Below are positions 115 through 22,000 of a stretch of DNA of 24,000 nt, one piece after another. The stretch covers positions 1 through 24,000 of the forward strand of contig JBDNJN010000282.1 in NCBI GenBank assembly GCA_041687725.1, read 5' to 3'. A program made the translations under genes and the position numbers. Positions within the stretch are counted from its first letter, which is position 1; every line of letters starts with the position of its first letter. The DNA comes from Pseudanabaena sp. Lineage in GTDB: Bacteria; Cyanobacteriota; Cyanobacteriia; Pseudanabaenales; Pseudanabaenaceae. The notes beneath the pieces are model-generated. The model worked only from the letters and a program-made list of their open reading frames with translations. It was not told the origin of the DNA and searched no databases.

Positions 115-3100
115 TTAAGAAACGTGTGCGGTTGCCCTGCCAATAGTACCTGTCATAGAGACAATTACATCGTTTTTCTTTATACTGATAGATTTGTATT
201 TTTCAAAAACATGATTTTCTATTGAATAAAGAGATTCTTCATTTATTTCAAAAGCTTGATTGAATGCTTCAGTTCTAACAAATTTTGGCTTTTCTTTTAT
301 ATATTCTTTGATTACATCATCTGGCGTAGTCCCATTCTTAATGTCTGAGGTTAGAACATTTCTAACAACTGTAAAACCTCTTGAATAACTTTTAATTTTT
401 GATTCTAAATCATCATATTTGGGTTGATAATATTCAGCGTCAAGCCGATCGCTTGTCCCAAAAGAAGCCGAAAAGCTCTTAATCGCAATATTTTCATCCG
501 TTGGTTGCCAGTCCTTCAACCCAAGCTCTGACAATAATAAATCTTCAGCTTGTTGATAACATTTTTCTGATTGTATTAGCTGTTTTTTTGCGAATGATAT
601 TACTTCGGAAATACGTTCTTCAAGATTTAACGAAAACTCTGGAATTGATACTTGATCCGTATCCTCTAAGATCAAGCCCATTTGGACGGCTCCGCGAGTA
701 AATCGCTTAATTTGACTTTGCCCAAATTTAGAATTTAGATAGGTAGAGAAGTATTCAGGCGTAATCTTTTTAGGGCGCAAAATTGCTAATTTACAGTTGC
801 AAGTTGCAGATTGATTTGTGCTGACAAGAGAAACGGCTCCAATAGTTCCTACAATTGAAAGTAAAACATCTCCTTTTTTAAGATGAGAGCGTTTCATATA
901 AGTTAAATTATAGGTGTCTTCATTAATGAAAATAGGCGAAGACTGCTCAATAAAAAAGTGATGTATATCTTGTCCTCGATAATATGGAATACCACTATCA
1001 GCAAAGTTCTCACTGATTTTCATGTGGTTTCCGTCAAAGACTTTAACAAAGTCAGTGATTGGTTTTAGAATTTTTTGTTTTAATATTCTTACGTTCTCAA
1101 GATATTCTTTCTTAAAAAACTCAGAATCAAGTCTGTGAGTACGTTCTAATTCACTCAATAGAACTTCAACCGCTTCTAGCTCACCCATCAACCCATTATA
1201 CTTCTCAGCATCAAACGGTATAACAGATGAGCTTAAATCAAAAAAACTTAAATTCTCCTTCTTTGCAAACTCAATAAATGCCTCAGCAATCCCATCTTGA
1301 GTTAATCCATCATGATTAAACAAATCGTGATCCACAATTAAATGACTATGTTCATCAAGCAAAAACTCACCCGAACCATCAGACTTTTTGACATAGATTT
1401 TCTCGCCCGAATTATCCTTACCACCCTTCCGCATTGTCGCAAAAAAGATATTGTAATCATCCCGATGCGGACAAAGAGCGCCAGCCGACCGATCATCATT
1501 CCACTTCTGCACAAATAACACCGAAGTCTTCGTACCCGTATGCGGCTTAAACGTATTCCCATGCAGCCCTACCACCGCCAAGATCCGACAGCGATCGGCA
1601 ATAAAATCGCGAATATACTTATCCGAAGAATTATTAAACCGACCCTGCGGCAATACCACCGCCATTCTGCCTCCCGCCTTCAAAAAGTCGAGATTGCGCT
1701 CAATAAAGAGAATATCTCGCCCCATCTTGTTTTGCCACTTACCATCACTCTTTTTTGCTAACTCATAGTGATAAATAATTCTCGGCTCCTTAATTTCTCC
1801 CGCAAAAGGAGGATTTGCCATCAACACATCAAACCGAAAATCTCGATAGTCCTTACTGCCTTTCGGGCGCAATTTCTTCAACCGATTAAATCCAGTGAAA
1901 TAGATACTTTGCCAGTCTTCCTGTTCTGCAATTTCATCCCACATCTCATAATCAAGCGTGTTTAGCTGTAAAACATTTGTCTGACCATCACCAGCAATCA
2001 GATTCAGCGTTCGCGCCACCCGCACAGCCTTTTCATCAAAATCAATTGCAAAAACCCGATCCTCAACATATTCCTTACAGCGAATCGGCTTATCTTCTAA
2101 AGAGAACAAATGACTAACTTCTAATCCCTCATCTTTTAAAATATTCTTCCAAACATGAAAAATCGCGTGAACAGGAAAGCCAGAAGAACCAGCCGCCGTA
2201 TCGATCGCATACTCATCCTCTTTTGGATTAAGCATCTTCACACACATATCAATCACATAGCGCGGCGTAAAGTATTGTCCCTTATCATCCTTACTATTTT
2301 TATTCATCAAATATTCAAAAGCCTCATCAATCACTTCCATATTGGAATTAAAAAGCTTGACATCCTGCAAAGATGCGACACAAATTCTAAAATGTGATGG
2401 AGCGAGACTAATTTTTACATCCTCACTAAAAATACCTTCCCACTTTTTCTTAGCCCGATCAAACAAATCTTGAATCTTAGTTTTAAGTTCTCCTTCCGTC
2501 TGCCCAGTATTGCGAAACTCTAAACATCTAGTACTGCGCCGCGTACCTTGTCCTGAGTACCACTCATCATAAAGCTTTGTAAAAATCAGCTTAAACAATT
2601 CCTCAAAAACATCTACCCCAGCATTAGCAAGCACTTCATCTTCCATTTCTTGAATCAAAGTTTTGAGAGATTTTTTCTCTCTCACCAATTTATCGCCAGC
2701 AATTAAATCATCAAGAGTAAAAGGTTTACCCACAATGTCTGAAAGCTTCTGATTCGCATTAGGAATATCGCTAATCGGCTCAAAATGATTAGGATCGTTA
2801 CGTTGATAATAGGAGATTTGCTCCCCATTCGTCCAAACGGCAATCGGCGCACCCGTTCCGTGACAATAGGATTTAAGCTGCTCTTTCCCATCCTTTAGTT
2901 TTGGCTTTTTTACCTCTACTAAGATATAAGCAGTATTTGGGCGATGCTTATCCATCACCACAATATCCGCCCGTTTCACCTCACGCCCAAAATTAACCCC
3001 ATATTCCACCTGAATCCGACTAACAGGATATAAATAGCGATCGCACAATACCTTTAAATAAAGCTGCCTAATCGCCTCTTCAGGCGTAAGCTTAATATCT

Positions 3101-3246
3101 TTACCCCGCACCAAACACTTAATGTAAGGCACATCCCCCTTAGCACTAGATTTCAAAAAAATAGACTGCTCTAACCAAGCTACCTCTCCAGCCTTAAACT
3201 GTGAAAGCTTGTACTCAGAGTCTTTAAGAATTTTAGCTAGATTCAT
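115..3246 (-). CDS. Single-chain R-M-S restriction-modification enzyme (type IIB/IIG-like): N-terminal PD-(D/E)XK nuclease, gamma-class N6-adenine methyltransferase and two HsdS-like target-recognition domains. The second TRD is truncated by a stop codon.
   Basis: The 1046-aa ORF runs 115..3255 from a TTG; the first ATG (MNLAKIL) is at 3244-3246. The nuclease-like motif is ADIVVMD...YILVEVKKPK. Methyltransferase motif I is AIDTAAGSSGFPV and motif IV is MANPPFAG. Two TRD openings are seen, RLDSEFF and RLDAEYYQPKY, each followed by a GTIG motif (SIVGTIGAVS and SMTGTIGRAT). TRD2 stops 7 residues after its GTIG. Confidence 0.8.
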   Translation of the reverse strand: MNLAKILKDSEYKLSQFKAGEVAWLEQSIFLKSSAKGDVPYIKCLVRGKDIKLTPEEAIRQLYLKVLCDRYLYPVSRIQVEYGVNFGREVKRADIVVMDKHRPNTAYILVEVKKPKLKDGKEQLKSYCHGTGAPIAVWTNGEQISYYQRNDPNHFEPISDIPNANQKLSDIVGKPFTLDDLIAGDKLVREKKSLKTLIQEMEDEVLANAGVDVFEELFKLIFTKLYDEWYSGQGTRRSTRCLEFRNTGQTEGELKTKIQDLFDRAKKKWEGIFSEDVKISLAPSHFRICVASLQDVKLFNSNMEVIDEAFEYLMNKNSKDDKGQYFTPRYVIDMCVKMLNPKEDEYAIDTAAGSSGFPVHAIFHVWKNILKDEGLEVSHLFSLEDKPIRCKEYVEDRVFAIDFDEKAVRVARTLNLIAGDGQTNVLQLNTLDYEMWDEIAEQEDWQSIYFTGFNRLKKLRPKGSKDYRDFRFDVLMANPPFAGEIKEPRIIYHYELAKKSDGKWQNKMGRDILFIERNLDFLKAGGRMAVVLPQGRFNNSSDKYIRDFIADRCRILAVVGLHGNTFKPHTGTKTSVLFVQKWNDDRSAGALCPHRDDYNIFFATMRKGGKDNSGEKIYVKKSDGSGEFLLDEHSHLIVDHDLFNHDGLTQDGIAEAFIEFAKKENLSFFDLSSSVIPFDAEKYNGLMGELEAVEVLLSELERTHRLDSEFFKKEYLENVRILKQKILKPITDFVKVFDGNHMKISENFADSGIPYYRGQDIHHFFIEQSSPIFINEDTYNLTYMKRSHLKKGDVLLSIVGTIGAVSLVSTNQSATCNCKLAILRPKKITPEYFSTYLNSKFGQSQIKRFTRGAVQMGLILEDTDQVSIPEFSLNLEERISEVISFAKKQLIQSEKCYQQAEDLLLSELGLKDWQPTDENIAIKSFSASFGTSDRLDAEYYQPKYDDLESKIKSYSRGFTVVRNVLTSDIKNGTTPDDVIKEYIKEKPKFVRTEAFNQAFEINEESLYSIENHVFEKYKSISIKKNDVIVSMTGTIGRATAHVS

Positions 3247-3520
3247 CGGGGACAAAAATACAAAATAGAGTATTAATAATCTTCAATATTAACGTGATTA
3301 TGGTAAGTAGCCGAAACTGATTTTGATTAAAAACGCTGTTATGGGACGCGATCGCAACTGTTCCCCTTCCCGTAGCCAAAATTCTAGCATGAAGTGAAAT
3401 TTTGGTAAAGAATCGGGCTTGACTTTGGACAAGAAAGCTTAAAGGCTTCTCACTCCAATATTCAAACACTTATTTTGGAGACTAGCGATCGCTTTAAACG
3501 TTATCTAGATCGCAAGATTA

Positions 3521-3556: not shown

Positions 3557-4075
3557 TTAGCCGATCACTTCGGCGATTTCAATTACCTGCCCATCAGGAT
3601 CTTTAACCAAAAAGTTAAGCGGCTTTTCGCTACGAACTTTGTGCTTGATCCCCTTAACCTGAATTTGCAACAAGAGTTGCTCCACGCAGTCACGGTTAAA
3701 GCAAATATGCCTACTACGATTAGCGTCCGTGACATTTGCCCCAGGCACAATATGCAGTTGCACATTTTTCTTTAGTTGATACCAAGCGCCCTCCATATCT
3801 GCCGAATATTTAGACTGAGCGCGTCTGGCTTCAGCAGGAATATAAATGGGGTCAGCAGGTGCGCCCATACCATATTCATAGCCATAGTAATAATGTAGCG
3901 GCACATCAGCGATCGCCAGTTTTAATTCGCCTTCGTAAAAATATCGCGCTTGATCGAGGTTAGAAACCATGATCGTATGTACTTTCGGTGCGCTGGTGAG
4001 GAACATCCACATAGCAACAGCGTATGCACCGAGCAGCATAACCATGATGCCTTGAGTAGAAAACAGTGACTCCAT
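3557..4075 (-). CDS. VOC (glyoxalase/bleomycin-resistance/dioxygenase fold) family protein with an N-terminal hydrophobic anchor
   Basis: The 172-aa ORF has a hydrophobic N-terminus (IMVMLLGAYAVAMWMFL). It then shows VOC-like motifs: HTIMVSNLDQARYFYEGELKL, and later HICFNRD...FLVKDPDGQVIEI. Confidence 0.6.
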   Translation of the reverse strand: MESLFSTQGIMVMLLGAYAVAMWMFLTSAPKVHTIMVSNLDQARYFYEGELKLAIADVPLHYYYGYEYGMGAPADPIYIPAEARRAQSKYSADMEGAWYQLKKNVQLHIVPGANVTDANRSRHICFNRDCVEQLLLQIQVKGIKHKVRSEKPLNFLVKDPDGQVIEIAEVIG

Positions 4076-4248
4076 TGTAAAGCAACTACATATAAGAGAC
4101 TTAGCTTTTTAGTTTAACGCAAGTGTCCTAGATTTAAGTCACAAAGTACACGATTGAGTAAAAGTATTACGCATAATACCGCGTCTAGGATGAAACCCGT
4201 AGTTTTTATAGAGGGTCGCAGGGCGAAGCCCAGCTTCAATTTTTCTTT

Positions 4249-4273
4249 CGCCAATTCAAACTTGAAGTGCAAC
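4249..4273 (+). repeat. Left terminal inverted repeat of the IS30-like relic
   Basis: It matches the right end at 23/25 positions in inverted orientation. It lies about 70 nt upstream of the transposase start codon. Confidence 0.65.
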
Positions 4274-4343
4274 ACCTAGAGATCTTGTCATAAGGGACTC
4301 ATAAGGATATTCTGATATTTATCGTAACAATAAGGATATCTTC

Positions 4344-5003
4344 ATGAGTTATACACATCTTACCATTTCAGAGCGAGCAGAGATTTACAAATTAAGAGTG
4401 ACAGACAAATTGTCAATGTCAGCGATCGCCGCAACTATGAAGCGGTCAAAGAGTACGATATCAAGAGAGCTAAATCGTAACACCAGCGAGGAATACAAAG
4501 TTTATTTACCAGATACCGCCGATGCAACGGCAAGACAGCGCAGGGTAAAAGCAAAGGGACGATCAAGAGAATCATTGCTACGACAATAGAGGAGGTCAAA
4601 CAAAGCTTAGAGCAGTACCACAGTCTAGAACAAATAGCAGGACGGATGAAACGAGAAGGGAAGCCGACAGTGAGCTATGAGACGATTTAGCAAATACTCT
4701 AATCTATGTAAAACACCAAGAACTGGGGATGCGGAAGCAATATCTGAGACAGAAACGGAGGCGGCGAAAAGGAGTGAAGCAGAAACGTGGAGGAATTCCC
4801 AATCGAGTGGGAGCGAATTGAACGAGCATACAAATAGATTGATTAGGCAATTCTATCCCAAATCCACGAATTTTAAGATGGTGAAGGAAGAGGACTTCTA
4901 GAAGATTGTGAATTTGACAACCATAGACCAAGAGATTCTCTTGACTAGCGCACGCCTCATGAAGTATTCTTTGGGGCATCAGAACCTGTTGAACTTCAAA
5001 TTT
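4344..5003 (+). pseudogene. IS30-family transposase pseudogene with frameshifts, internal stops and a deleted DDE core
   Basis: Frame 1 encodes the N-terminal HTH (MSYTHLTISERAEIYKL...STISRELNRN). After a frame shift comes TTIEEVKQSLEQYHSLEQIAGRMKREGKPTVSYETI. Next is YLRQKRRRRKGVKQKRGGIPNRV. This is joined directly to the C-terminal NEHTNRLIRQFYPKSTNF. A further frame shift gives FDNHRPRDSLD*RTPHEVF. The roughly 150 aa that carry the first two catalytic Asp residues are absent. Confidence 0.7.
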
Positions 5004-5873: not shown

Positions 5874-7292
5874 ATGTATAAGCGCATCGGCAATTGGCTA
5901 ATTATCTTTATCACCGTCTTTTGTCTTGTTACATGTAGCGCTCCCTCAAACAACAGTAAGATCACGACCCTAAACGTAGGGGCAGGCGGTGCAGACGAAT
6001 TCAGGATTTGGTGGTATCAAGGTTTTTTGCCTGAGGAAAACACCCTAATTGCCCAATTGGTAGAAGGCTGGCAAAAAGAAAGTGGTCTGAAAGCTTCATT
6101 AAGACTTGTCCCGACTAACCTTTTAGATTCAGAAGTAACTAAAGCCCTAGAAACAGGAAGTCAGCCAGATCTTCTCTACAGTACGACCGCTGACACTAAT
6201 CTCTTCCCAAAACTAGCTTGGAAAAATGAGCTTGCTGATGTTTCCGACATAATTCAACCAATTAAAGATACTTATATACCTACTGCCTTACAAGTTGTTA
6301 ATTATCAGAATGGAGTAACTAAAAAACGCAGCTACTATGCAGCCCCGATCGGTCAGCAAACTGTTCATATTTTTTATTGGAAAAATCTTTTAGAACAAGC
6401 AGGTTTTAAGGAGACTGATATACCTAAAGAATGGGATAAGTATTGGAAATTTTGGCAATCAGTACAAACGAATCTCCGAGATATAAAAGGTGTCAATAAC
6501 ATATACAGCATAGGGCTACCAATGTCAGATTTGGGGACAGACACTTTTTTGTTCTTTGAAGAATTCCTTGAAGCTTATGATGTCAAAATCGTTGATGATA
6601 GTGGCAATCTCTTGATCGAGGAAACTGGTAACAAAGACAAAATAATTTTAGCTCTTAAAAAGTACACTGAATTATACATAGGTGGATATGTCCCGCCCAA
6701 AGCAGTCGAATGGAGTGACTCTGGGAACAATATCAGCTTTTTGGAGAGTGAGTCAGTCATGACTCTTAATGGTAGTTTGTCAATTCCATTGACTCAAAAG
6801 TTACCTAAAAATAAGTATAATGAAACTTCCCGCGATTTATATTTTAATAAAATTGTCACAGATGATTTACCTAACAGACCTGATGGTTCTGATTTAAAAT
6901 CCATCTTAGGGATCAAGCAAGTCGTAATATTTGAGAAGTCAAAACATAAAGACCAAGCAAAAAGCTTTATGAAATATTTCTTGAGACCAGAAATCCTAAA
7001 TAAATTCATTAAAGAAGGCAGTAAGGGGCGATTAATTCCAGTAATGCCGCAACTTTTGGAAGACCCATTTTGGAAAGAAGCCGATCCCCATTTTTCCTCA
7101 GCAATTAATCAATTACTAAAGGAGCCAACTCGTCCATCTTATGAAGCAATCAACCCTGCCTATAGTGTTGTTTTAGAAAAAAATATTTGGCCCAAGACAA
7201 TCCTAAATATTGTTAGAGATAAAGTGTCGCCAGAGGAAGCCGCTACTAAAGCGATTAGCCAAATTGTTGATATTTTTTCTAATTGGAAATAG
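5874..7292 (+). CDS. Extracellular solute-binding lipoprotein (ABC-transporter family-1 SBP fold, sugar or oligosaccharide type)
   Basis: The 472-aa ORF has a signal peptide with the lipobox LVTC|S (MYKRIGNWLIIFITVFCLVTCSAP). Its length and its W/Y/K-rich alpha/beta pattern are typical of family-1 SBPs. No permease or ATPase genes lie nearby. Confidence 0.7.
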   Translation: MYKRIGNWLIIFITVFCLVTCSAPSNNSKITTLNVGAGGADEFRIWWYQGFLPEENTLIAQLVEGWQKESGLKASLRLVPTNLLDSEVTKALETGSQPDLLYSTTADTNLFPKLAWKNELADVSDIIQPIKDTYIPTALQVVNYQNGVTKKRSYYAAPIGQQTVHIFYWKNLLEQAGFKETDIPKEWDKYWKFWQSVQTNLRDIKGVNNIYSIGLPMSDLGTDTFLFFEEFLEAYDVKIVDDSGNLLIEETGNKDKIILALKKYTELYIGGYVPPKAVEWSDSGNNISFLESESVMTLNGSLSIPLTQKLPKNKYNETSRDLYFNKIVTDDLPNRPDGSDLKSILGIKQVVIFEKSKHKDQAKSFMKYFLRPEILNKFIKEGSKGRLIPVMPQLLEDPFWKEADPHFSSAINQLLKEPTRPSYEAINPAYSVVLEKNIWPKTILNIVRDKVSPEEAATKAISQIVDIFSNWK

Positions 7293-7357
7293 GCTTTAAC
7301 TAAAATTTGTCATTAAATTTGTCATTGAGATTCATAAAAAATATTAGAGGTCGCAAA

Positions 7358-10351
7358 ATGAAATTCTGGAAAAAAAGTCTACTACTTCAACTTGTTTCCT
7401 ATTTCTCAGTGCTTTCTACAGTAACTGTGAATATTGTGGCTTTCTCTGCTTATGTGCGCGCTCGTGACGCACTCCAGAATTCAGTGATTGAGCGCCTAAA
7501 GGTAACAATATCTCTCAAAGAGTACCAACTAAATAGATGGGTTGAAGGGCAACGAAAGGATGTCATTCTCCTTGCTCAGTTGCCAGAAATCAGGGATGAA
7601 TTAGCCACACTTGTAACGATATCGCCAAACCAACCTGAATACTTAGCAACATATGCAAAGTTGAGCAAGTCTTTGAAAGATATAACAGACATCAAAGAAA
7701 ATTTATCCAGCATCATTGCTACAACCAATGGGGGGGTCGTTGTTTTTTCTAGTGAAAGTAATACTTTGGTCGGCAAATTTCGGACTTTAGGAGATCCGAC
7801 GACTTATTTTACTAGACAAAATGCAAATACAGTTGTGCCAAACTTCTATTTGTCAAAGTCAACTGGTAAAGCGCAAATAACTTTCGCAACTCCCATATTT
7901 GATCGCGAGCAAATAGCTATGGGTGCAATTACAGTTAATCTAGCACTTGAGGACATTGATAATCTCATTCGCGAAAGGACTGGGCTAGGTAAAACAGGCG
8001 CTACCTATTTAGTCGGTAGAGCTGGCAAAAAAAGCGTTTTCATTTCTGGCTCTAGAGAAGAAAATAAAAACAAAACAGATAGCAAAGATATTGTTGAGGT
8101 AAAAAGTGAAGCTATCGATTTAGCGCTTGCTAAGCAAGATGGGTTTGGTTTGTATAACAACTACACTGGTATACCTGTAGTTGGCGTATTTCGCTGGTCA
8201 ACAACGCAAAATCTGGCGATCTTAGCGGAGATTAATCAAGATGAAGCGTTTGAGCCTGCGAATCGATTAGCGAGAGATATTCTGTTGATTGGACTTAGTT
8301 CCGCAGGTATCTTATTAACTGCTGTTTACTTACTGGCCCGAAGAGTTACTCAACCGATTTTGGCGATCGCTGATGCTGCCAACCAAGTTGCTAGCGGTAA
8401 TCTCGATTCGCAAGCACCAGTATTAACTGAAGATGAAATTGGTGTCTTGGCGATCGCCTTTAATCAAATGACATCACAACTCAAAAATTCGGGTGAGCAG
8501 TTAGCCGATTACAGCCGCACCCTAGAGCAGAAAGTCGAACAACGCACCAGTGAAATCAAAGCGATTATCGATAACATGGTGGATGGATTGTTGGTAGTTA
8601 ATGGCGAAGATCGGATTACTCAGTTTAATCCCGCGATCGCAGGCATGATCGGAGTCAGTAATAGTGAGATTTCTACGTCTGAGAATTACTGGGAAATATT
8701 TAAAGCTGAGGAGATCGCAAATCTAGTTAAGAGTACTAGAGAAAATCCCAAACAAGTCTTTAGCGAAGAGTTTCAACTTCCCGATCGCCGTGTTGGCAAA
8801 GCGGTTGCTACTTCGATCTTTAGCGAGGTAAACACTTCAGGAGAAGCTACATTGGGAATGGATTATCTAGGCACTGTAATTCTAATTCGCGATATCACTG
8901 CTGAGAAAGAAGTTGATCGGATGAAAACAGACTTCATCTCAACTGTATCTCATGAATTGCGAACACCCCTTACTTCTGTGCTAGGGTTTGCCAAGTTGAT
9001 TCAGAAAAAGCTGGATGAATCGATCTTCCCCTTGATTCAGACCGATGATAAGAAAGTAAATCGCAGTGTGCGTCAAGTCACCGAAAATCTTGAAATTATT
9101 GTATCTGAAGGAACGCGCCTGACTAAGCTAATTAACGAGGTTCTAGATGTTGCCAAAATGGAAGCTGGTAAAATGCAATGGAATATGGAGCCGTTGGCAA
9201 TTATAGAAGTGATTGATCGGGCTTTTTCGGCAACTTCTGCACTCTTTGAGCAAAAAGAATTAGCAGTAATTCGAGAGATTGACGCAGACTTACCAAATAT
9301 CGATGGTGATAAGGATCGCCTGATTCAAGTTGTAATTAATCTGATCTCTAATGCGGTGAAATTCACCCAAGAAGGTGGTATCACTTGTCGGGTTAGGAAA
9401 GATAATCAATCGATTGTGGTCAGCATCATCGATCAAGGTGTTGGTATTTCTGAGTCCGACCAGCCAAAAGTGTTTGAGAAATTTAAACAAGTCGGCGATA
9501 CGCTCACTGATAAGCCCCAAGGAACGGGGCTAGGGTTGCCAATTTGTAAAGAAATAGTTATCCATCACGGAGGCAATATCTGGGTAGAGAGTGAAATTGG
9601 CAAGGGAAGTACTTTTTCTTTTACGCTTCCGATTAGCGCAGAAAATTCTCAGATCCCCTTAATTAATTTCGACATTCTCATCGACCAACTCAAGAAGAGG
9701 GTGACTTCAAATGATCAATCCCAATCTGAGGATGTGATTGGGTTACCCAAGAATATCCTAGTAATTGATGACGATGCGAGTATTCGGAAACTACTCAGAC
9801 AGGAACTAGAGGCTAAAGGCTATGTTGTGCGCGAAGCTGCAAATGGGAGTGAGGCGATCGCCAAAGTCCGTGAAAGTCGCCCCGATCTGATTACCCTTGA
9901 TATTATCATGAAGGGAATTAATGGCTATGATGTGGCAGCAATTCTCAAATCCGATCCTGCTACCCTAGATATTCCAATTATCATTGTCTCAATATTAGAT
10001 GACAAAGATAATGGTCTTCATTTAGGAATAGATAGTTATGTGACTAAGCCGCTAGACATGACCATATTGCAACGAGAGGTGGAAATTCTTTTGTCTAGTA
10101 AGGCTTCTACAGCCAAAAAGATTTTGGTGATTAACGATAATTTTAGTTCTATCGATCTATTAATGGAAACGTTGCAAAATCAAGGTTTCCTACCTTCCAA
10201 AATCTCTCCCCAAGATGATTTACGAGCTAGTGCGATCGCCTTTCAGCCTGATGTGATTATTGCTAGTACAAAATTTGCTCAAAAAGTACAATCTCTCCGT
10301 GCTGAGCCAAGTATGGAACATATTCGCTTTTTATTAATTGCCGACCAATAG
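7358..10351 (+). CDS. Hybrid sensor histidine kinase: TM, Cache-like periplasmic domain, TM, HAMP, PAS, HisKA, HATPase_c, receiver, pseudo-receiver
   Basis: The ATG at 7358 has GAGG 7 nt upstream; the ORF track starts at a TTG at 7307. The first TM is LLLQLVSYFSVLSTVTVNIVAF and the second is ILLIGLSSAGILLTAVYLLA. HAMP contains DEIGVLAIAFNQM. The H-box is SHELRTPL, with the His codon at 8951-8953. The N and G boxes are NLISNAVKF and GTGLGLPICK. The receiver shows VIDDDA...ITLDIIM...VTKP. A final REC-like fold lacks the acceptor Asp. Confidence 0.9.
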   Translation: MKFWKKSLLLQLVSYFSVLSTVTVNIVAFSAYVRARDALQNSVIERLKVTISLKEYQLNRWVEGQRKDVILLAQLPEIRDELATLVTISPNQPEYLATYAKLSKSLKDITDIKENLSSIIATTNGGVVVFSSESNTLVGKFRTLGDPTTYFTRQNANTVVPNFYLSKSTGKAQITFATPIFDREQIAMGAITVNLALEDIDNLIRERTGLGKTGATYLVGRAGKKSVFISGSREENKNKTDSKDIVEVKSEAIDLALAKQDGFGLYNNYTGIPVVGVFRWSTTQNLAILAEINQDEAFEPANRLARDILLIGLSSAGILLTAVYLLARRVTQPILAIADAANQVASGNLDSQAPVLTEDEIGVLAIAFNQMTSQLKNSGEQLADYSRTLEQKVEQRTSEIKAIIDNMVDGLLVVNGEDRITQFNPAIAGMIGVSNSEISTSENYWEIFKAEEIANLVKSTRENPKQVFSEEFQLPDRRVGKAVATSIFSEVNTSGEATLGMDYLGTVILIRDITAEKEVDRMKTDFISTVSHELRTPLTSVLGFAKLIQKKLDESIFPLIQTDDKKVNRSVRQVTENLEIIVSEGTRLTKLINEVLDVAKMEAGKMQWNMEPLAIIEVIDRAFSATSALFEQKELAVIREIDADLPNIDGDKDRLIQVVINLISNAVKFTQEGGITCRVRKDNQSIVVSIIDQGVGISESDQPKVFEKFKQVGDTLTDKPQGTGLGLPICKEIVIHHGGNIWVESEIGKGSTFSFTLPISAENSQIPLINFDILIDQLKKRVTSNDQSQSEDVIGLPKNILVIDDDASIRKLLRQELEAKGYVVREAANGSEAIAKVRESRPDLITLDIIMKGINGYDVAAILKSDPATLDIPIIIVSILDDKDNGLHLGIDSYVTKPLDMTILQREVEILLSSKASTAKKILVINDNFSSIDLLMETLQNQGFLPSKISPQDDLRASAIAFQPDVIIASTKFAQKVQSLRAEPSMEHIRFLLIADQ

Positions 10352-18001: not shown

Positions 18002-18436
18002 CTATTGCCAGAATCTTTTATTCAAAATCGACTCAATATCTCGTTCAAGTTCCCACGCTTTAGGGAAGTTCGTATCTGGATAGTCGGCACTCAGATCATA
18101 GAGCGCAGATGAGTAGTTAAAATCAAACCTTTTATCCCAGTTTTCTTTTAAGCTAGGGGCATCTTCAAAAATAAGCTCAATACCGCATCGATAAAAGCTA
18201 ATGTCGCTTTGCCATCTCTCAAATTGATTGGGTAAGGGGACGTATAGCCGTTTGAGCATATTGATAAGCAGGTTTTTCAGGTCGTCATCTAAATCTCTTT
18301 TGAGGATATAGATCAAGCTTTCAAATTCTTCAATCAGGTTGTCTAAGTCCAGATTTTGAAAATCTTTGGCTTTAAGCTTGGCGACATTTTCCTGAACCCA
18401 AAGTATATAATCTTGGTCAAATAAAAACTGATTCAT
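18002..18436 (-). CDS. DUF29 family protein
   Basis: The N-terminus LFDQDYILWVQENVAKLKAKDFQNLDLDNLIEEFESL matches the characteristic DUF29 opening (LYxxDxxxWxxxQxxxLRxxxxxxLDxxNLxEEIESL). The length is 144 aa. Confidence 0.8.
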   Translation of the reverse strand: MNQFLFDQDYILWVQENVAKLKAKDFQNLDLDNLIEEFESLIYILKRDLDDDLKNLLINMLKRLYVPLPNQFERWQSDISFYRCGIELIFEDAPSLKENWDKRFDFNYSSALYDLSADYPDTNFPKAWELERDIESILNKRFWQ

Positions 18437-18536
18437 TCTAATCTCTGCCTGTAAAATCAGGTTGGTACAATGGGAAAATATGCAACTATGTTATCTCCTG
18501 CTCTCGACTCAGTAAAAGATGGTTAGAATTTTCTTG

Positions 18537-18542
18537 TATAAT
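18537..18542 (+). promoter_or_regulatory. Candidate -10 box (TATAAT) for the ATPase/DUF4435 operon
   Basis: A perfect TATAAT lies 28 nt upstream of the ATG at 18571. No convincing -35 element is seen. Confidence 0.25.
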
Positions 18543-18570
18543 TGAGACTAATCGCAACTAGCAAAATAAT

Positions 18571-19779
18571 ATGAAACTTAAAAGAGTCTCTGTCAAAGGG
18601 CTAAACAATAAAGTTGATTGTGATTTTGAATTTCACGATGACATAAATATTGTTACAGGCATCAATGGCTGTGGGAAAACAACATTCCTAAAAATGATCT
18701 GGTATGCAATTTCAGGGAATATCGACCGTCTTATATCTGAAATAAGTTTTGAAGAATTCAGCTTGGAAACCAGTAAATTTTCACTATTACTAATCAATCA
18801 AACATATGAAACTAAGGAGCAATCTCCAATTGTTGTTTCGCCACAAGATGCAGGGTATTTTCCCTATTTCTCAAATAAAAGTAGCCCTATTGAATGGCAA
18901 TGTATTTTAAATGGAATTAAACAAAATGGTTATATTAATTTAGGCGAATATAATCCAACGGGAGGAGTAGAGTTATTAAAATCTCTAATCTTAAAAATTG
19001 GTGAATCATCTCTGTTTTTTCCAACTTTTAGAAGGATTGAGGGGGGATATTCATTAATCAATCCTAAAAGCCAGAGACCTATATCAAAAGCGTTCAAGTC
19101 ATTAGCAGATATGAAGCAAGATTTAAGAGAGATAAATAATGTAAATATACAAGATGGATTTGACAAATTATCAAATAATATGTCATTTGCTGAGCATAAA
19201 TTTATATGTTCTATATCAACTCATGATCTTGGTTATTTGCTCCGCCTACACCATGCTGAGACAACCGAAAAAATTGATGAATATTCTCTTGCTTTAAATA
19301 AATCATTAATTAGTAAGCTTGAAAATATAAAATCTGGCATTGGGGATAGCAAGGATGAATCGTTAGCTATTGTTAGTAAACTACAGCGAGAAGTGGCAGA
19401 TGTTGATAATAAGCGAGATGAACTTCTACAACCTTTTAAAGTGCTATCTGAATTAGTTACTAAAGTTATGCACTATAAAGGTGTCAAACTTGATGATTTC
19501 AATATTGGAGATTCAGACAACGCTATTGATTCTAGATTGCTTTCATCTGGTGAACAACAAATGCTTAGCTTTCTTTGCTATAACGCATTTTATGAAGACT
19601 CAGTAATATTTATTGATGAACCTGAATTAAGTCTTCATCCAGATTGGCAGCGTAGATTATTTCCTAACTTGATGAAACAACAATCAAGTAACCAGTTTAT
19701 TGTGGCTACACATTCCCCTATGATCTACTCTAAATATTCAGATAAAGAGCTTATACTTTCATCGGAGAAAGGTGAATGA
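18571..19779 (+). CDS. ABC/SMC-type (AAA_15/21/23-like) ATPase, AriA/OLD-ATPase-like
   Basis: Walker A is GINGCGKTT (K36). The ABC signature-like motif is LSSGEQQML. Walker B and D-loop read VIFIDEPELSLHPD. The H-loop is VATHSP. About 280 aa lie between Walker A and the signature, including a helical stretch rich in charged residues (EKIDEYSLALNKSLISKLENIKS...LQREVADVDNKRDELLQPF). Confidence 0.85.
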   Translation: MKLKRVSVKGLNNKVDCDFEFHDDINIVTGINGCGKTTFLKMIWYAISGNIDRLISEISFEEFSLETSKFSLLLINQTYETKEQSPIVVSPQDAGYFPYFSNKSSPIEWQCILNGIKQNGYINLGEYNPTGGVELLKSLILKIGESSLFFPTFRRIEGGYSLINPKSQRPISKAFKSLADMKQDLREINNVNIQDGFDKLSNNMSFAEHKFICSISTHDLGYLLRLHHAETTEKIDEYSLALNKSLISKLENIKSGIGDSKDESLAIVSKLQREVADVDNKRDELLQPFKVLSELVTKVMHYKGVKLDDFNIGDSDNAIDSRLLSSGEQQMLSFLCYNAFYEDSVIFIDEPELSLHPDWQRRLFPNLMKQQSSNQFIVATHSPMIYSKYSDKELILSSEKGE

Positions 19780-20519
19780 GTAAAGGAAAGTATCTTTCTG
19801 AAGATGAAATTGTAGCTCTATTGAGAGACACATCACTTCCAACAATCTTAGTTGAAGGTAGTGATGATTTATCTGTATATAACAGATACCTAGAAAGCAA
19901 GATTAATATTGAAGATGTTGATGTTTTACCTTGTCAAGGAAGACCAACTCTTCTCAATATCTTTCAAAGAAGAGAAGAATTTAAAAATGCTCAAGTTGTC
20001 TTTGTTGCCGACAAAGATATGTGGTTCTTTTTTGGTATTCCAAAAGAATATAAAAGTCAAATAGTATTTACAGATGGATACTCATTAGAAAATGATATTT
20101 ATGTTGAACAAAGTTTCAAAAGACTATTAGATAAAGATGATGTAAAAAAGTTTGAGAATTTAATTAAAGAGCTATCAATTTGGTTTGCATTTGAAGTCAA
20201 TAGATATCAAGAGACTAGTTATTCTAAATGTGATGTTAATATAAATAGGATATGTCCAGATGATACACTTTGTCCCAATTTTAAGCAAAAAATAAATTTT
20301 GTCGATCCACCTCACGAGCTTGTAGATCGTATTCATCGAGAATATGCTAGGGCATTACGTGGTAAAAACTTATTTGAGGCTTTGGTAAGATTTCTGACTC
20401 GTCGAACATCAAACTATAGTCGAGCTAATCTTCTTGAGCTTGGCTCAAAGGTACTTGATAATCCACGAATAGAAATTCTGGTTAATAAAATTGTTGGAAA
20501 ATTTCAAGAATATCGCTAA
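19776..20519 (+). CDS. DUF4435 / TOPRIM-like protein, AriB-like candidate nuclease effector
   Basis: The start overlaps the ATPase stop codon (ATGA at 19776-19779), with GGAG at 19764-19767. [16 protein letters not shown] (E27) fits the DUF4435 opening VEGxxDxxxY and the TOPRIM Glu. [12 protein letters not shown] (D79, D81) fits the TOPRIM DxD. Confidence 0.75.
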
Positions 20520-20596
20520 GTAATAACCTCGATAGGGGGCTAATACGATGTCCAAACGATGCCAAAATAGTATTTGATTTAAGTGGAGAAAGATCG

Positions 20597-22000
20597 GTGT
20601 CGGAAAAGTTTGATTACGATTTGATCATTATTGGTGCGGGAGTTGGTGGACATGGTGCTGCACTTCACGCCGTCGCCTGTGGATTAAAAACGGCGATCGT
20701 TGAGGATGGTGTGATGGGCGGAACCTGTGTTAATCGTGGCTGCATTCCCTCAAAGGCTTTGTTGGCGGCTTCGGGACGTGTACGCGAAATGCGGGCAAAG
20801 TCTCACCTCAAGGCGCTGGGTATTGATATCGGTGAAGTGAATTTTGATCGCAGCGCGATCGCTAGTCATGCCGATAACTTAGTGTTGAAATTGCGCGGCG
20901 ACTTAACCAATAGCCTTAAAAAATTAGGCGTAGATATTTTGCAAGGTCGCGGTCGTGTGGCGGGTGTGCAGAAGGTTAGCGTTGGCGACAAGATTTACAG
21001 CGCCAAAGATATTATTCTTGCTACAGGTTCCGAACCATTTGTGCCACGCGGTGTTGAACTCGATGGCAAAACTGTATTTACTAGCGATCAGGCAGTGCGT
21101 CTGGAAACCTTACCGCAGTGGATTGCGATTATCGGTAGCGGCTATATCGGTCTAGAATTTGCGGATGTCTATACGGCGCTTGGTTCAGAAGTGACGATGA
21201 TCGAAGCGTTAGATATCTTGATGCCGGGGTTTGATCCTGATATTGCCAAGATCGCGGAACGCATATTGCTGAAGCCTCGCGACATTGAAACGAGAACAGG
21301 TGTATTTGCGACTAAAATCACCGCAGGTTCGCCAGTTAAAATTGAACTTACCGATGCAAAGACGAAGAAAGTAATTGAAGTTTTAGAAGTCGATGCTTGT
21401 CTGGTTGCGACTGGTCGGATTCCGCTTACTAAGGATCTTGGTTTAGAAAGTGTGGGAATCGCGCCCAATCAACGCGGATTTATTGATGTGGATGACAAGA
21501 TGGCGACTTCTGTTCCCCATTTATGGGCGATCGGGGATGCGACTGGTAAGATGATGCTCGCTCATGCGGCTTCGGCTCAGGGCATTGTGGCGGTAGAAAA
21601 TATTTGCGATCGCCATGCCACGGTTGATTATCAAAGTATTCCTGCGGCTGCTTTTACGCATCCTGAAATTAGCTTTGTCGGTTTGACGGAGCCACAGGCT
21701 AAGGAAAAGGGGACTCTGGAAGGCTTTAAGGTGGCGACTACGAAGTCTTACTTCAAGGGAAATTCTAAGGCGATCGCTGAGGGAGAAACCGATGGACTCG
21801 CCAAGATTGTTTACCGTGTCGATACAGGCGAACTTTTGGGCGCACATATTATTGGTATTCATGCTTCAGATTTGATTCATGAAGCTTCTGCGGCGATACG
21901 CGATCGCGCTACTGTCCAGAAATTAGCGACAATTGTTCACGCGCACCCAACTCTCAGCGAAGTGTTGGATGAAGCTTACAAACGCGCAGCGCATATCTAG
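20597..22000 (+). CDS. lpdA: Dihydrolipoyl dehydrogenase (E3 component)
   Basis: The GTG start has GGAGAAAG upstream. The FAD motif is [12 protein letters not shown]. The redox-active disulfide is [13 protein letters not shown]. The NAD motif is [11 protein letters not shown]. The C-terminal His-Glu dyad is HAHPTLSE. Confidence 0.95.

Follow-up and report, generated by a model that had tools for sequence, protein, structure and literature searches.

A probable PARIS-family (AriA/AriB) gene pair of a compact clade at a defence hotspot of Pseudanabaena

Introduction

The reference for the PARIS family of defence systems is the one found in the B185 P4 satellite of Escherichia coli (PDB 8ux9, 8v45-8v49; Rousset 2022; Burman 2024; Deep 2024; Belukhina 2025), in which the gene of the ATPase AriA precedes that of the nuclease AriB. 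Here we describe a related pair of genes, open reading frames (ORFs) 1 and 2, in a stretch of 24,000 nucleotides from Pseudanabaena sp. (contig JBDNJN010000282.1 of assembly GCA_041687725.1, positions 1 to 24,000 of the forward strand), which is called the window below. The pair appears to be a two-gene PARIS-family abortive-infection module, a reading to which we give a probability of roughly 0.85. The products of ORF1 and ORF2 are referred to as AriA and AriB, and residue numbers are those of the window unless E. coli is named.

AriB has a TOPRIM fold followed by a C-terminal helical domain for dimerisation. In E. coli AriB, residues E26, D30, D88, E90 and E122 make up a two-metal site (Burman et al.), and the substitution E26A abolishes defence. 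R28 and R31 form salt bridges to AriA, K60 and K64 are 'tweezers' on the anticodon loop (specificity for tRNA-Lys, -Thr and -Asn), and R236 touches the D-loop of the tRNA in the AlphaFold3 model of Belukhina et al. (PMC12409363). Two unmodelled loops of E. coli AriA, 113-124 and 161-174 (SSDVGYERRVIRSS), form the lining of the central and radial pores; they are basic, implicated in Ocr binding and poorly conserved between clades. The E. coli complex is a propeller of the composition AriA6:AriB3, and IS2 helices enable its AriA hexamer. According to Burman et al., ariA and ariB are rarely swapped between clades.

The public records of the Pseudanabaena proteins carry merely the names 'AAA family ATPase' and 'DUF4435 domain-containing protein', and we found no paper on PARIS in Pseudanabaena in the literature. 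To our knowledge, the mechanism of PARIS has been studied in E. coli only.

Results

Domain, fold and residue matches

The Pfam matches of ORF1 are AAA_21 (6.9e-22, 79.3 bits) and AAA_15 (7.2e-22, 78.9 bits), the latter running over residues 1-385 against positions 1-373 of the 374 of the model, whereas ORF2 matches DUF4435 (2.2e-9, 37.8 bits; cut-off 27). The published rule for detecting PARIS takes two co-located genes, with a minimum of 32 bits for AAA_15 or 27 bits for AAA_21 in the one and of 27 bits for DUF4435 in the other (Rousset 2022). With these scores, and with genes that overlap by 4 nt, the pair falls under the rule as it stands, so that standard tools should call it. In fact, the top PADLOC model for ORF1 is AriA (PDLC04164, 5.8e-30), and the sole one for ORF2 is AriB (PDLC02983, 2e-10). 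At E-values up to 1, Pfam gave nothing for ORF2 besides DUF4435 and a sub-threshold match to the OLD-like TOPRIM model PF20469 (14 bits, cut-off 23.2). NCBIfam had no match for ORF2 and left ORF1 far under all cut-offs, so that neither protein has a specific model there. The closest homologues of both proteins are from Pseudanabaena.

Among PDB sequences (phmmer), the best relative of ORF1 is E. coli PARIS AriA (8ux9_B and 8v45, 3e-22), followed by the PtuA proteins of retrons and Septu at about 1e-10 and by Gabija GajA at about 2e-7 (1.8e-7). ORF2 found no match in the PDB by phmmer. Because sequence searches of ORF2 against the PDB failed, its link to AriB was made by fold search and by profile-to-profile alignment. 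An AlphaFold2 model of ORF2, built from the family alignment, reached a predicted local distance difference test (pLDDT) of 91.4 and a predicted template modelling score of 0.86. When searched with Foldseek against the PDB, the model had only two matches below an E-value of 0.001, both of them AriB and both with a probability of 1.0 (8ux9_A, 6.6e-6; 8v46_D, 1.9e-5); the next ones, at 0.02-0.06, were C-terminal TOPRIM regions of OLD nucleases. For the AriA model, AriA chains fill the top 15 PDB matches (4e-18 to 5e-14), above retron and Septu PtuA.

The E. coli AriB sequence was recovered through alignment with the canonical PARIS of a Pseudoalteromonas plasmid and was compared with the ORF2 family by hhalign. 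Under default settings the TOPRIM core was aligned (probability 82%, E-value 1.1e-5), and under relaxed settings the alignment took in 221 columns of the TOPRIM and the C-terminal helical domain (83%, 8e-6). By this mapping, E27, D30, D79, D81, E105 and R195 correspond respectively to E26, D30, D88, E90, E122 and R236 of E. coli AriB, and the six are invariant or nearly so across the ORF2 family. The GYSLEND motif is aligned with GHSLEN of E. coli, which contains E122, and the RGK motif with R236-G237-H238 in the relaxed alignment. E. coli R67 is conserved as R56, the sole one of K60, K64 and R67 that is.

The ATPase motifs of AriA are likewise conserved. Over 22 homologues, G30, N32, G33, G35, K36, T37 and T38 of the Walker A motif are invariant, and K36 is the counterpart of E. 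coli AriA K39 (PMC11464382). Residues S325, G327, E328 and Q330 of the signature are invariant among homologues, and the Walker B motif is aligned with LIDEPEISLH of E. coli, which contains E393, such that the E350 region is the equivalent of E393. The AlphaFold2 model places two long helices at 217-254 and 261-302, in a region aligned with residues 270-368 of E. coli AriA. Since both ORFs are long for DNA of 31-33% GC, have strong Pfam scores and carry motif residues that are invariant in homologues, they are not chance reading frames.

Conservation of the gene pair and its clade

A hidden Markov model search of 1.84 billion representative proteins returned 804 relatives of ORF2 at E-values of at most 1e-3, 416 of them at 1e-30 or below. 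Of the 150 best, nearly all measure 240-265 amino acids (aa), and the relatives form a well-delimited compact clade, in which AriA has about 370-400 aa and AriB about 250 aa. Of 68 sampled clade representatives, only 35 come up to approximately the DUF4435 gathering score, and some strong members have no Pfam match whatsoever.

A scan of one genome per species gave 189 relatives of ORF2, from which 80 loci were kept, and the synteny survey took in 83 loci including these. An AriA homologue lies immediately upstream of the AriB homologue in all 83, one of which (Hahella) is interrupted by an insertion sequence. The junctions are tight: among 83 scorable adjacent ones, the overlap is 1 nt in 45 and 4 nt in 20, the others lying within 26 nt; the ATGA overlap is kept in 15 of 15 Pseudanabaena alleles. 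The hosts include Pseudanabaena, Nodosilinea, Poribacteria, Caldilineaceae, Gammaproteobacteria, Bacteroidota and Planctomycetota.

Some loci depart from the simple pair. On the chromosome of Hahella aquimaris (L003, 5578-8705), a DDE_Tnp_1 transposase gene (6843-7982) separates the AriA and AriB homologues, the AriB homologue is N-terminally shorter (234 aa), and genes for RadC and a YafO toxin adjoin; this system is probably inactivated. Two proteins of the representative library, P0189 (698 aa) and P0190 (692 aa), are tandem AriB-AriB fusions, in effect covalent pseudo-dimers, and have a repeated domain of about 60 aa at the C-terminus. Part of the catalytic motifs has degenerated (in one copy, for example, FVANRG or FIAGRE replaces the DxD motif), which fits a model of an asymmetric AriB dimer with a single cutting active site. 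In two Poribacteria loci (L053, 5711-9826; L047, 7039-10074), two or three AriA-like ATPase paralogues surround one AriB homologue.

A fragment of E. coli AriA, used as query against a phage collection, gave distant ATPases only, and the plasmid collection yielded usable canonical PARIS loci: L085 on plasmid p1 of Planktothrix agardhii, from which it follows that PARIS is already present in cyanobacteria, and L084 on plasmid pTHAF3_a of Pseudoalteromonas, whose AriB matches the solved AriB at 6e-70.

A defence hotspot upstream of lpdA

The pair has CpcT and a DUF29 gene on one side and the lipoamide dehydrogenase gene lpdA and PurK on the other. GC content is 0.31-0.34 at the module, against 0.42-0.48 on either side, a trough that is a signature of horizontal acquisition. 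No flanking direct or inverted repeats marking a mobile element were found around the module, and the window held no tRNA gene, no Rfam family and no relevant tandem repeat; the islet thus seems to have been inserted or exchanged without an obvious element, likely by homologous recombination via the conserved flanks. Promoter and terminator scans gave no excess over shuffled controls.

In P. yagii and P. minima, as well as in a metagenome-assembled genome of an uncultured cyanobacterium and a metagenome contig, the pair likewise sits between DUF29 and lpdA; the alleles in this slot (L001, L004, L010 and L093) are divergent. The flanking proteins of these same-slot relatives are 90-94% identical to those of the window; AriA is just 59-75% identical and AriB 68-89%. 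We then anchored metagenome contigs on lpdA and inspected those whose lpdA is 92-95% identical. In L090 (4108-6903) and L094 (1062-3853), with lpdA 94-95% identical, the slot contains Septu PtuA/PtuB genes and a divergently oriented Uma2 gene. PtuA of 435-461 aa and PtuB of 261-264 aa are encoded with a 4-nt overlap, and PADLOC scored PtuA of L094 at 1.6e-104 and PtuB at 2.7e-66 (L094) and 3.6e-72 (L090), the ATPase of L090 being assigned by Pfam alone. Only housekeeping genes occupy the slot in L092, and the pair is likewise absent from L091. The lpdA-upstream slot is a defence hotspot, because the same position holds alleles of the pair, Septu, or no defence genes in close relatives, and this gives independent contextual support for an immune role of the pair.

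Another Pseudanabaena lineage has the pair upstream of a GHMP kinase gene, in a second slot that is likewise conserved. About 5 kb downstream of the pair, that slot holds in L087 (13960-16466) an AAA_15/AAA_21 ATPase with a DUF4276 partner, another OLD-family-type pair, after which comes a Phd/YoeB toxin-antitoxin pair.

The DUF29 gene tracks the pair at the lpdA slot, being present in the window, L001, L004, L010 and L093 and absent from L090, L094 and L092. Its DNA is 91-96% identical to the copies of L001, L004 and L010, and the values for CpcT and lpdA are lower, at about 0.75-0.89. DUF29 may be a hitch-hiker of the cassette or an accessory specific to the slot; as a general third component it was rejected, since the pair has no DUF29 gene nearby at the other slot or at the other Pseudanabaena loci checked. 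A gene of the Uma2 family (putative, restriction endonuclease-like) recurs directly downstream of cyanobacterial ATPase-effector cassettes, whether compact PARIS (L001, 8788-9411), canonical PARIS (Planktothrix L085, 4558-5169) or Septu (L090, 6289-6903; L094, 3239-3853). The window has none.

Allelic mosaicism and candidate sensor loops

DNA identity was followed along the cassette between the window and the same-slot alleles. It is about 0.85 in the flanks and close to 0.9 where ariA starts; over most of nt 18737-19186 it falls to 0.31-0.59, with insertions and deletions (one interval reaches 0.76-0.77 against two alleles), and further downstream, as far as the end of ariA, it is 0.72-0.95. 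In the region of loop 1 (nt 18737-18886) it is 0.31-0.34, with gaps above 50%. The identity of AriB varies independently of that of AriA, being about 0.9 against L004 and 0.66-0.79 against L001 and L010. At the protein level, AriA residues 56-205 are 35-59% identical between alleles, never above 0.59, whereas other segments reach 0.87-0.96. L010 is 0.96 identical over AriA 206-402 and 0.62 over AriB 121-247, and the values for L004 are 0.77 and 0.87. Such incongruent identities of segments point to recombination within the operon.

Two loops of AriA stand out by length among the homologues. Loop 1 (75-108) measures 7-36 aa, with a 34-aa insertion in the allele of the window, and loop 2 (161-192) measures 26-70 aa. 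The net charge of loop 2 is between -1 and +4, one allele being below zero, against -10 for the whole protein, and non-cyanobacterial members have an Arg-rich TRRVRRR core in it. The pLDDT of the AriA model is below 50 at residues 81-103 (loop 1) and 154-191 (loop 2). Loop 2 resembles the radial-pore loop 161-174 of E. coli AriA in position and composition. Judged by these two features, both loops may be counterparts of the trigger-sensing pore loops of E. coli.

Features of the locus and of the rest of the window

The coordinates of the features are collected in Table 1. The two ORFs with their ATPase and TOPRIM motifs, which an earlier sequence-only reading of the window had pointed out, could all be read from the DNA, and so could the ATGA overlap with GGAG upstream that it had quoted; the spacing of GGAG to the ariB ATG is 8 nt by our count.

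Table 1. Positions of the gene pair, its motifs and selected neighbours in the 24,000-nt window.
Feature	Coordinates	Strand	Size or basis
ariA-like gene (ORF1), ABC/SMC-type ATPase, putative sensor and scaffold	18571-19779	+	402 aa
AriA Walker A GINGCGKTT, residues 30-38 (K36)	18658-18684	+	Sequence reading
AriA hypervariable loop 1, residues 75-108	18793-18894	+	Length variation and low pLDDT
AriA hypervariable basic loop 2, residues 161-192, candidate trigger-sensing pore loop	19051-19146	+	Length, charge, low pLDDT
AriA long helical hairpin, residues 217-302, coiled-coil arm	19219-19476	+	AlphaFold2 model
AriA ABC signature LSSGEQQML, residues 324-332	19540-19566	+	Sequence reading
AriA Walker B and D-loop VIFIDEPELSLH, residues 345-356 (D349, E350, H356)	19603-19638	+	Invariant in homologues
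AriA H-loop ATHSP, residues 379-383 (H381)	19705-19719	+	Invariant; aligned with E. coli CTHSP
GGAG upstream of the ariB ATG	19764-19767	+	Sequence reading
ATGA stop/start overlap of ariA and ariB (translational coupling)	19776-19779	+	Sequence reading
ariB-like gene (ORF2), DUF4435/TOPRIM, putative nuclease effector	19776-20519	+	247 aa
AriB TOPRIM Glu motif ILVEGSDD (E27, D30)	19845-19868	+	E27, G28, D30 invariant in 20-sequence alignment
AriB TOPRIM DxD motif FVADKD (D79, D81)	20001-20018	+	Invariant in 20-sequence alignment
AriB GYSLEND motif (E105, N106, D107)	20076-20096	+	Invariant or nearly so
AriB RGK motif (R195-G196-K197), C-terminal helical domain	20358-20366	+	Invariant in 20-sequence alignment
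Low-GC islet holding the module	18400-20600		GC 0.31-0.34
DUF29 gene	18002-18436	-	
lpdA	20597-22000	+	
ORF with HSDR_N_2, N6_Mtase/Eco57I and Methylase_S domains	115-3255	-	1046 aa

Elsewhere in the window, the 1046-aa ORF looks, by its predicted domains, like a fused type IIG or type I-like restriction-modification enzyme, and it lies partly in a low-GC stretch (0.33-0.36 at 1-1400). A PARIS that senses anti-restriction proteins would complement such an enzyme in the same genome. Positions 4001-5000 have an unusually high AT skew (0.21-0.33), and about 4100-4700 is without an ORF of at least 90 aa; an Rfam and tandem-repeat search of 4001-5000 found nothing.

Discussion

The gene pair of the window follows the genetic organisation of PARIS, and the basis for calling it so lies in the domain identities, the catalytic residues, the folds, the adjacency and coupling of the genes, the signature of horizontal acquisition, the hotspot and the recombining loops. 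The sequence-only reading had proposed a PARIS-like (AriA/AriB) pair with a TOPRIM effector, and what it proposed to look at agrees well with that proposal: AAA_15, AAA_21 and DUF4435 score above their cut-offs and the best PADLOC models are AriA and AriB, in structure ORF2 comes closest to solved AriB, an upstream AriA homologue is present at every locus surveyed, and Septu is found at this chromosomal position in close relatives. It was also right to place the DNA in a cyanobacterium, given CpcT and DUF29 as neighbours and Pseudanabaena as the source of the nearest homologues. Its further suggestion of strongly diverged proteins, maybe of a new subtype, stood in part; the divergence is there, but the novelty was put too high, as the pair falls under the published PARIS rule unchanged.

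As to complex formation, stoichiometry, trigger, ATP-dependent release, RNA target and defence phenotype, we infer from the work on E. coli (PMC9122126, PMC11464382, PMC12409363). AriA would oligomerise via its coiled-coil arm and keep the TOPRIM nuclease AriB inactive, and the ATGA-coupled translation may aid the loading of AriB onto AriA. The two hypervariable loops of AriA would be engaged by a protein of a cyanophage, possibly one of the acidic anti-restriction or DNA-mimic kind, and AriA, which would need ATP binding for this (K36, E350), would let AriB go. The released AriB would dimerise, and its two-metal TOPRIM site (E27, D30, D79, D81, E105) would cleave an essential RNA of the host, most probably tRNA, such that translation and phage production would cease. 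We put the chances that tRNA is the target at about even, and the stoichiometry is possibly not 6:3, because the interface and tweezer residues are missing and both proteins are smaller.

Several findings weigh against the PARIS reading or against parts of it. The 20-sequence profile of the ORF2 family gave only chance matches when searched against the PDB with hmmsearch, and AriB was not among them; the fold of ORF2 agrees with solved AriB at a template modelling score of 0.47-0.49 and 13-14% identity, and the AriA model is of moderate confidence (pLDDT 69.5). The counterparts of E. coli R28 and R31 are not conserved: the stretch here is G28-S29-D30-D31, and the nearest invariant Arg is R37. 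K60 of E. coli falls within a 12-residue insertion that is missing here, and K64 is aligned to C53. Judged from the aligned residues, the AriA-AriB interface must differ in detail from that of E. coli and, with the interface residues and the tweezers missing, neither this interface nor the tRNA target can safely be carried over. AriA falls 62 aa short of its E. coli counterpart, and most members of the clade fall about 90 aa short of it; between Walker A and the beginning of the aligned coiled-coil segment there are about 40 aa fewer, and the IS2 helices needed for the AriA hexamer may be reduced. Lastly, the immediate neighbours are housekeeping genes, and there is no classic island of several systems.

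Much of this would also fit a PARIS-like two-gene defence of the OLD family in which the effector works otherwise, by nicking or degrading DNA or by cutting a non-tRNA RNA, or in which the stoichiometry differs, for example with an AriA dimer. Such a system would account for the loss of K60/K64 and R28/R31, for proteins about 60 aa shorter than those of E. coli, for a family profile that fails to reach AriB by sequence, for DNA-acting OLD TOPRIM regions as the next-best fold matches, and for the 35 of 68 representatives that alone reach about the DUF4435 cut-off. We nevertheless hold it to be unlikely, since AriB is the best fold match by some three orders of magnitude in E-value over OLD, the full catalytic set of AriB is conserved together with R236, and the alignment covers both the TOPRIM and the C-terminal helical domain. 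The other systems named by the sequence-only reading (OLD, GajA, AbiL/RloAB) fit less well on domain evidence. OLD and Gabija GajA were rejected on the two separate ORFs and the sub-threshold PF20469 score, and AbiL/RloAB or DUF4276-type pairs on the lack of any match of ORF2 to AbiLii, RloB (PF13707) or DUF4276 (PF14103) at E-values up to 1. Septu was also rejected; ORF2 has no PtuB/HNH match in PADLOC or Pfam, and hhalign against the PtuB of the slot gave a probability of 0.3%.

A selfish cassette of the toxin-antitoxin kind, in which the ATPase restrains a toxic nuclease and which spreads by recombination without useful protection from phages, could be seen in the solitary low-GC islet, in the mosaic, recombining alleles, in the Hahella pair split by an insertion sequence beside YafO-toxin and RadC genes, and in the word 'antitoxin' that the depositors of the PDB entries use for AriA. 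However, hypervariable sensor loops on conserved catalytic cores are the pattern expected of an arms race over the trigger, the slot alternates with Septu, a bona fide defence system, and the homologous E. coli system is proven to defend (PMC9122126, PMC11464382), so that we regard mere addiction as quite improbable. It seems hardly credible that the pair serves in housekeeping RNA processing or DNA repair, such as an RNase M5-like TOPRIM protein with an SMC/RecF-like ATPase. RNase M5 does share the TOPRIM domain, the ATPase weakly matches RecF, Rad50 and SMC_N, and the same slot is occupied in several Pseudanabaena genomes; but no NCBIfam housekeeping model comes near its cut-off, the distribution is patchy (804 representatives among 1.84 billion), the slot lacks the pair in relatives with 92-95% identical lpdA, and the GC trough and the hypervariable loops speak against such a role.

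Within the PARIS reading, which we prefer, it is a tentative and somewhat doubtful thought that the compact clade is a mechanistically distinct subtype, with its own interface, oligomeric state and RNA or tRNA target, and with a trigger specificity that is re-assorted inside a genus as recombination exchanges sensor-loop and effector segments among alleles at fixed chromosomal hotspots. If true, this would contradict the report of infrequent swapping of ariA and ariB; the swapping observed here is within a genus, and the statement of Burman et al. refers to a coarser scale.

Beyond a routine annotation, the analysis brings out the alternation of PARIS and Septu in a hotspot, the mosaicism within the operon and a clade partly invisible to the standard model. 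The locus would be a minimal natural PARIS, about 120 aa smaller in total, and as it keeps the catalytic cores and lacks the known interface and tRNA-recognition residues, it shows which features of the mechanism known from E. coli hold more widely. Among the Pseudanabaena alleles, sensor loops have been swapped naturally at one fixed locus, and this series is usable for mapping trigger specificity and points to cyanophage anti-restriction or other trigger proteins. Because about half of the clade is below the cut-off, surveys that use the DUF4435 Pfam-type model, as in the original PARIS rule, probably under-count PARIS, and cyanobacteria, Poribacteria and Caldilineaceae are probably the groups concerned; the PADLOC AriB model looks similar in kind.

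Set beside known systems, the pair shares its two domain types with OLD and GajA, whose TOPRIM regions come next among the fold matches of ORF2; these are, however, single polypeptides that act on DNA. With the PtuA-PtuB pairs of Septu and type I-A retrons it shares a related ABC ATPase (many PtuA matches to ORF1 in PADLOC, 1e-26 to 1e-17), and with Septu also the two-gene overlapping cassette and, in L090 and L094, even the lpdA-upstream slot, but the PtuB effector is an HNH nuclease and not a TOPRIM protein. The canonical PARIS loci of the Planktothrix and Pseudoalteromonas plasmids have the same overlap at the ATPase/DUF4435 junction, whereas their proteins are of the E. coli type (AriA of 460-470 aa, AriB of 310-326 aa) and the pair described here belongs to a separate compact clade. 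E. coli PARIS has two overlapping genes in the same order, ABC ATPase and then DUF4435/TOPRIM, all the ATPase motifs, counterparts of the AriB catalytic acids and of R236, and it provides the best sequence relative of AriA and the best fold relatives of both proteins. It differs in size, with AriA of 464 aa against 402 and AriB of 306-316 aa against 247, and in residing in a phage satellite, whereas the pair of Pseudanabaena lies in a cyanobacterial chromosomal hotspot. The pair thus belongs to a divergent, compact and sequence-isolated clade of the known PARIS family rather than being a new system.

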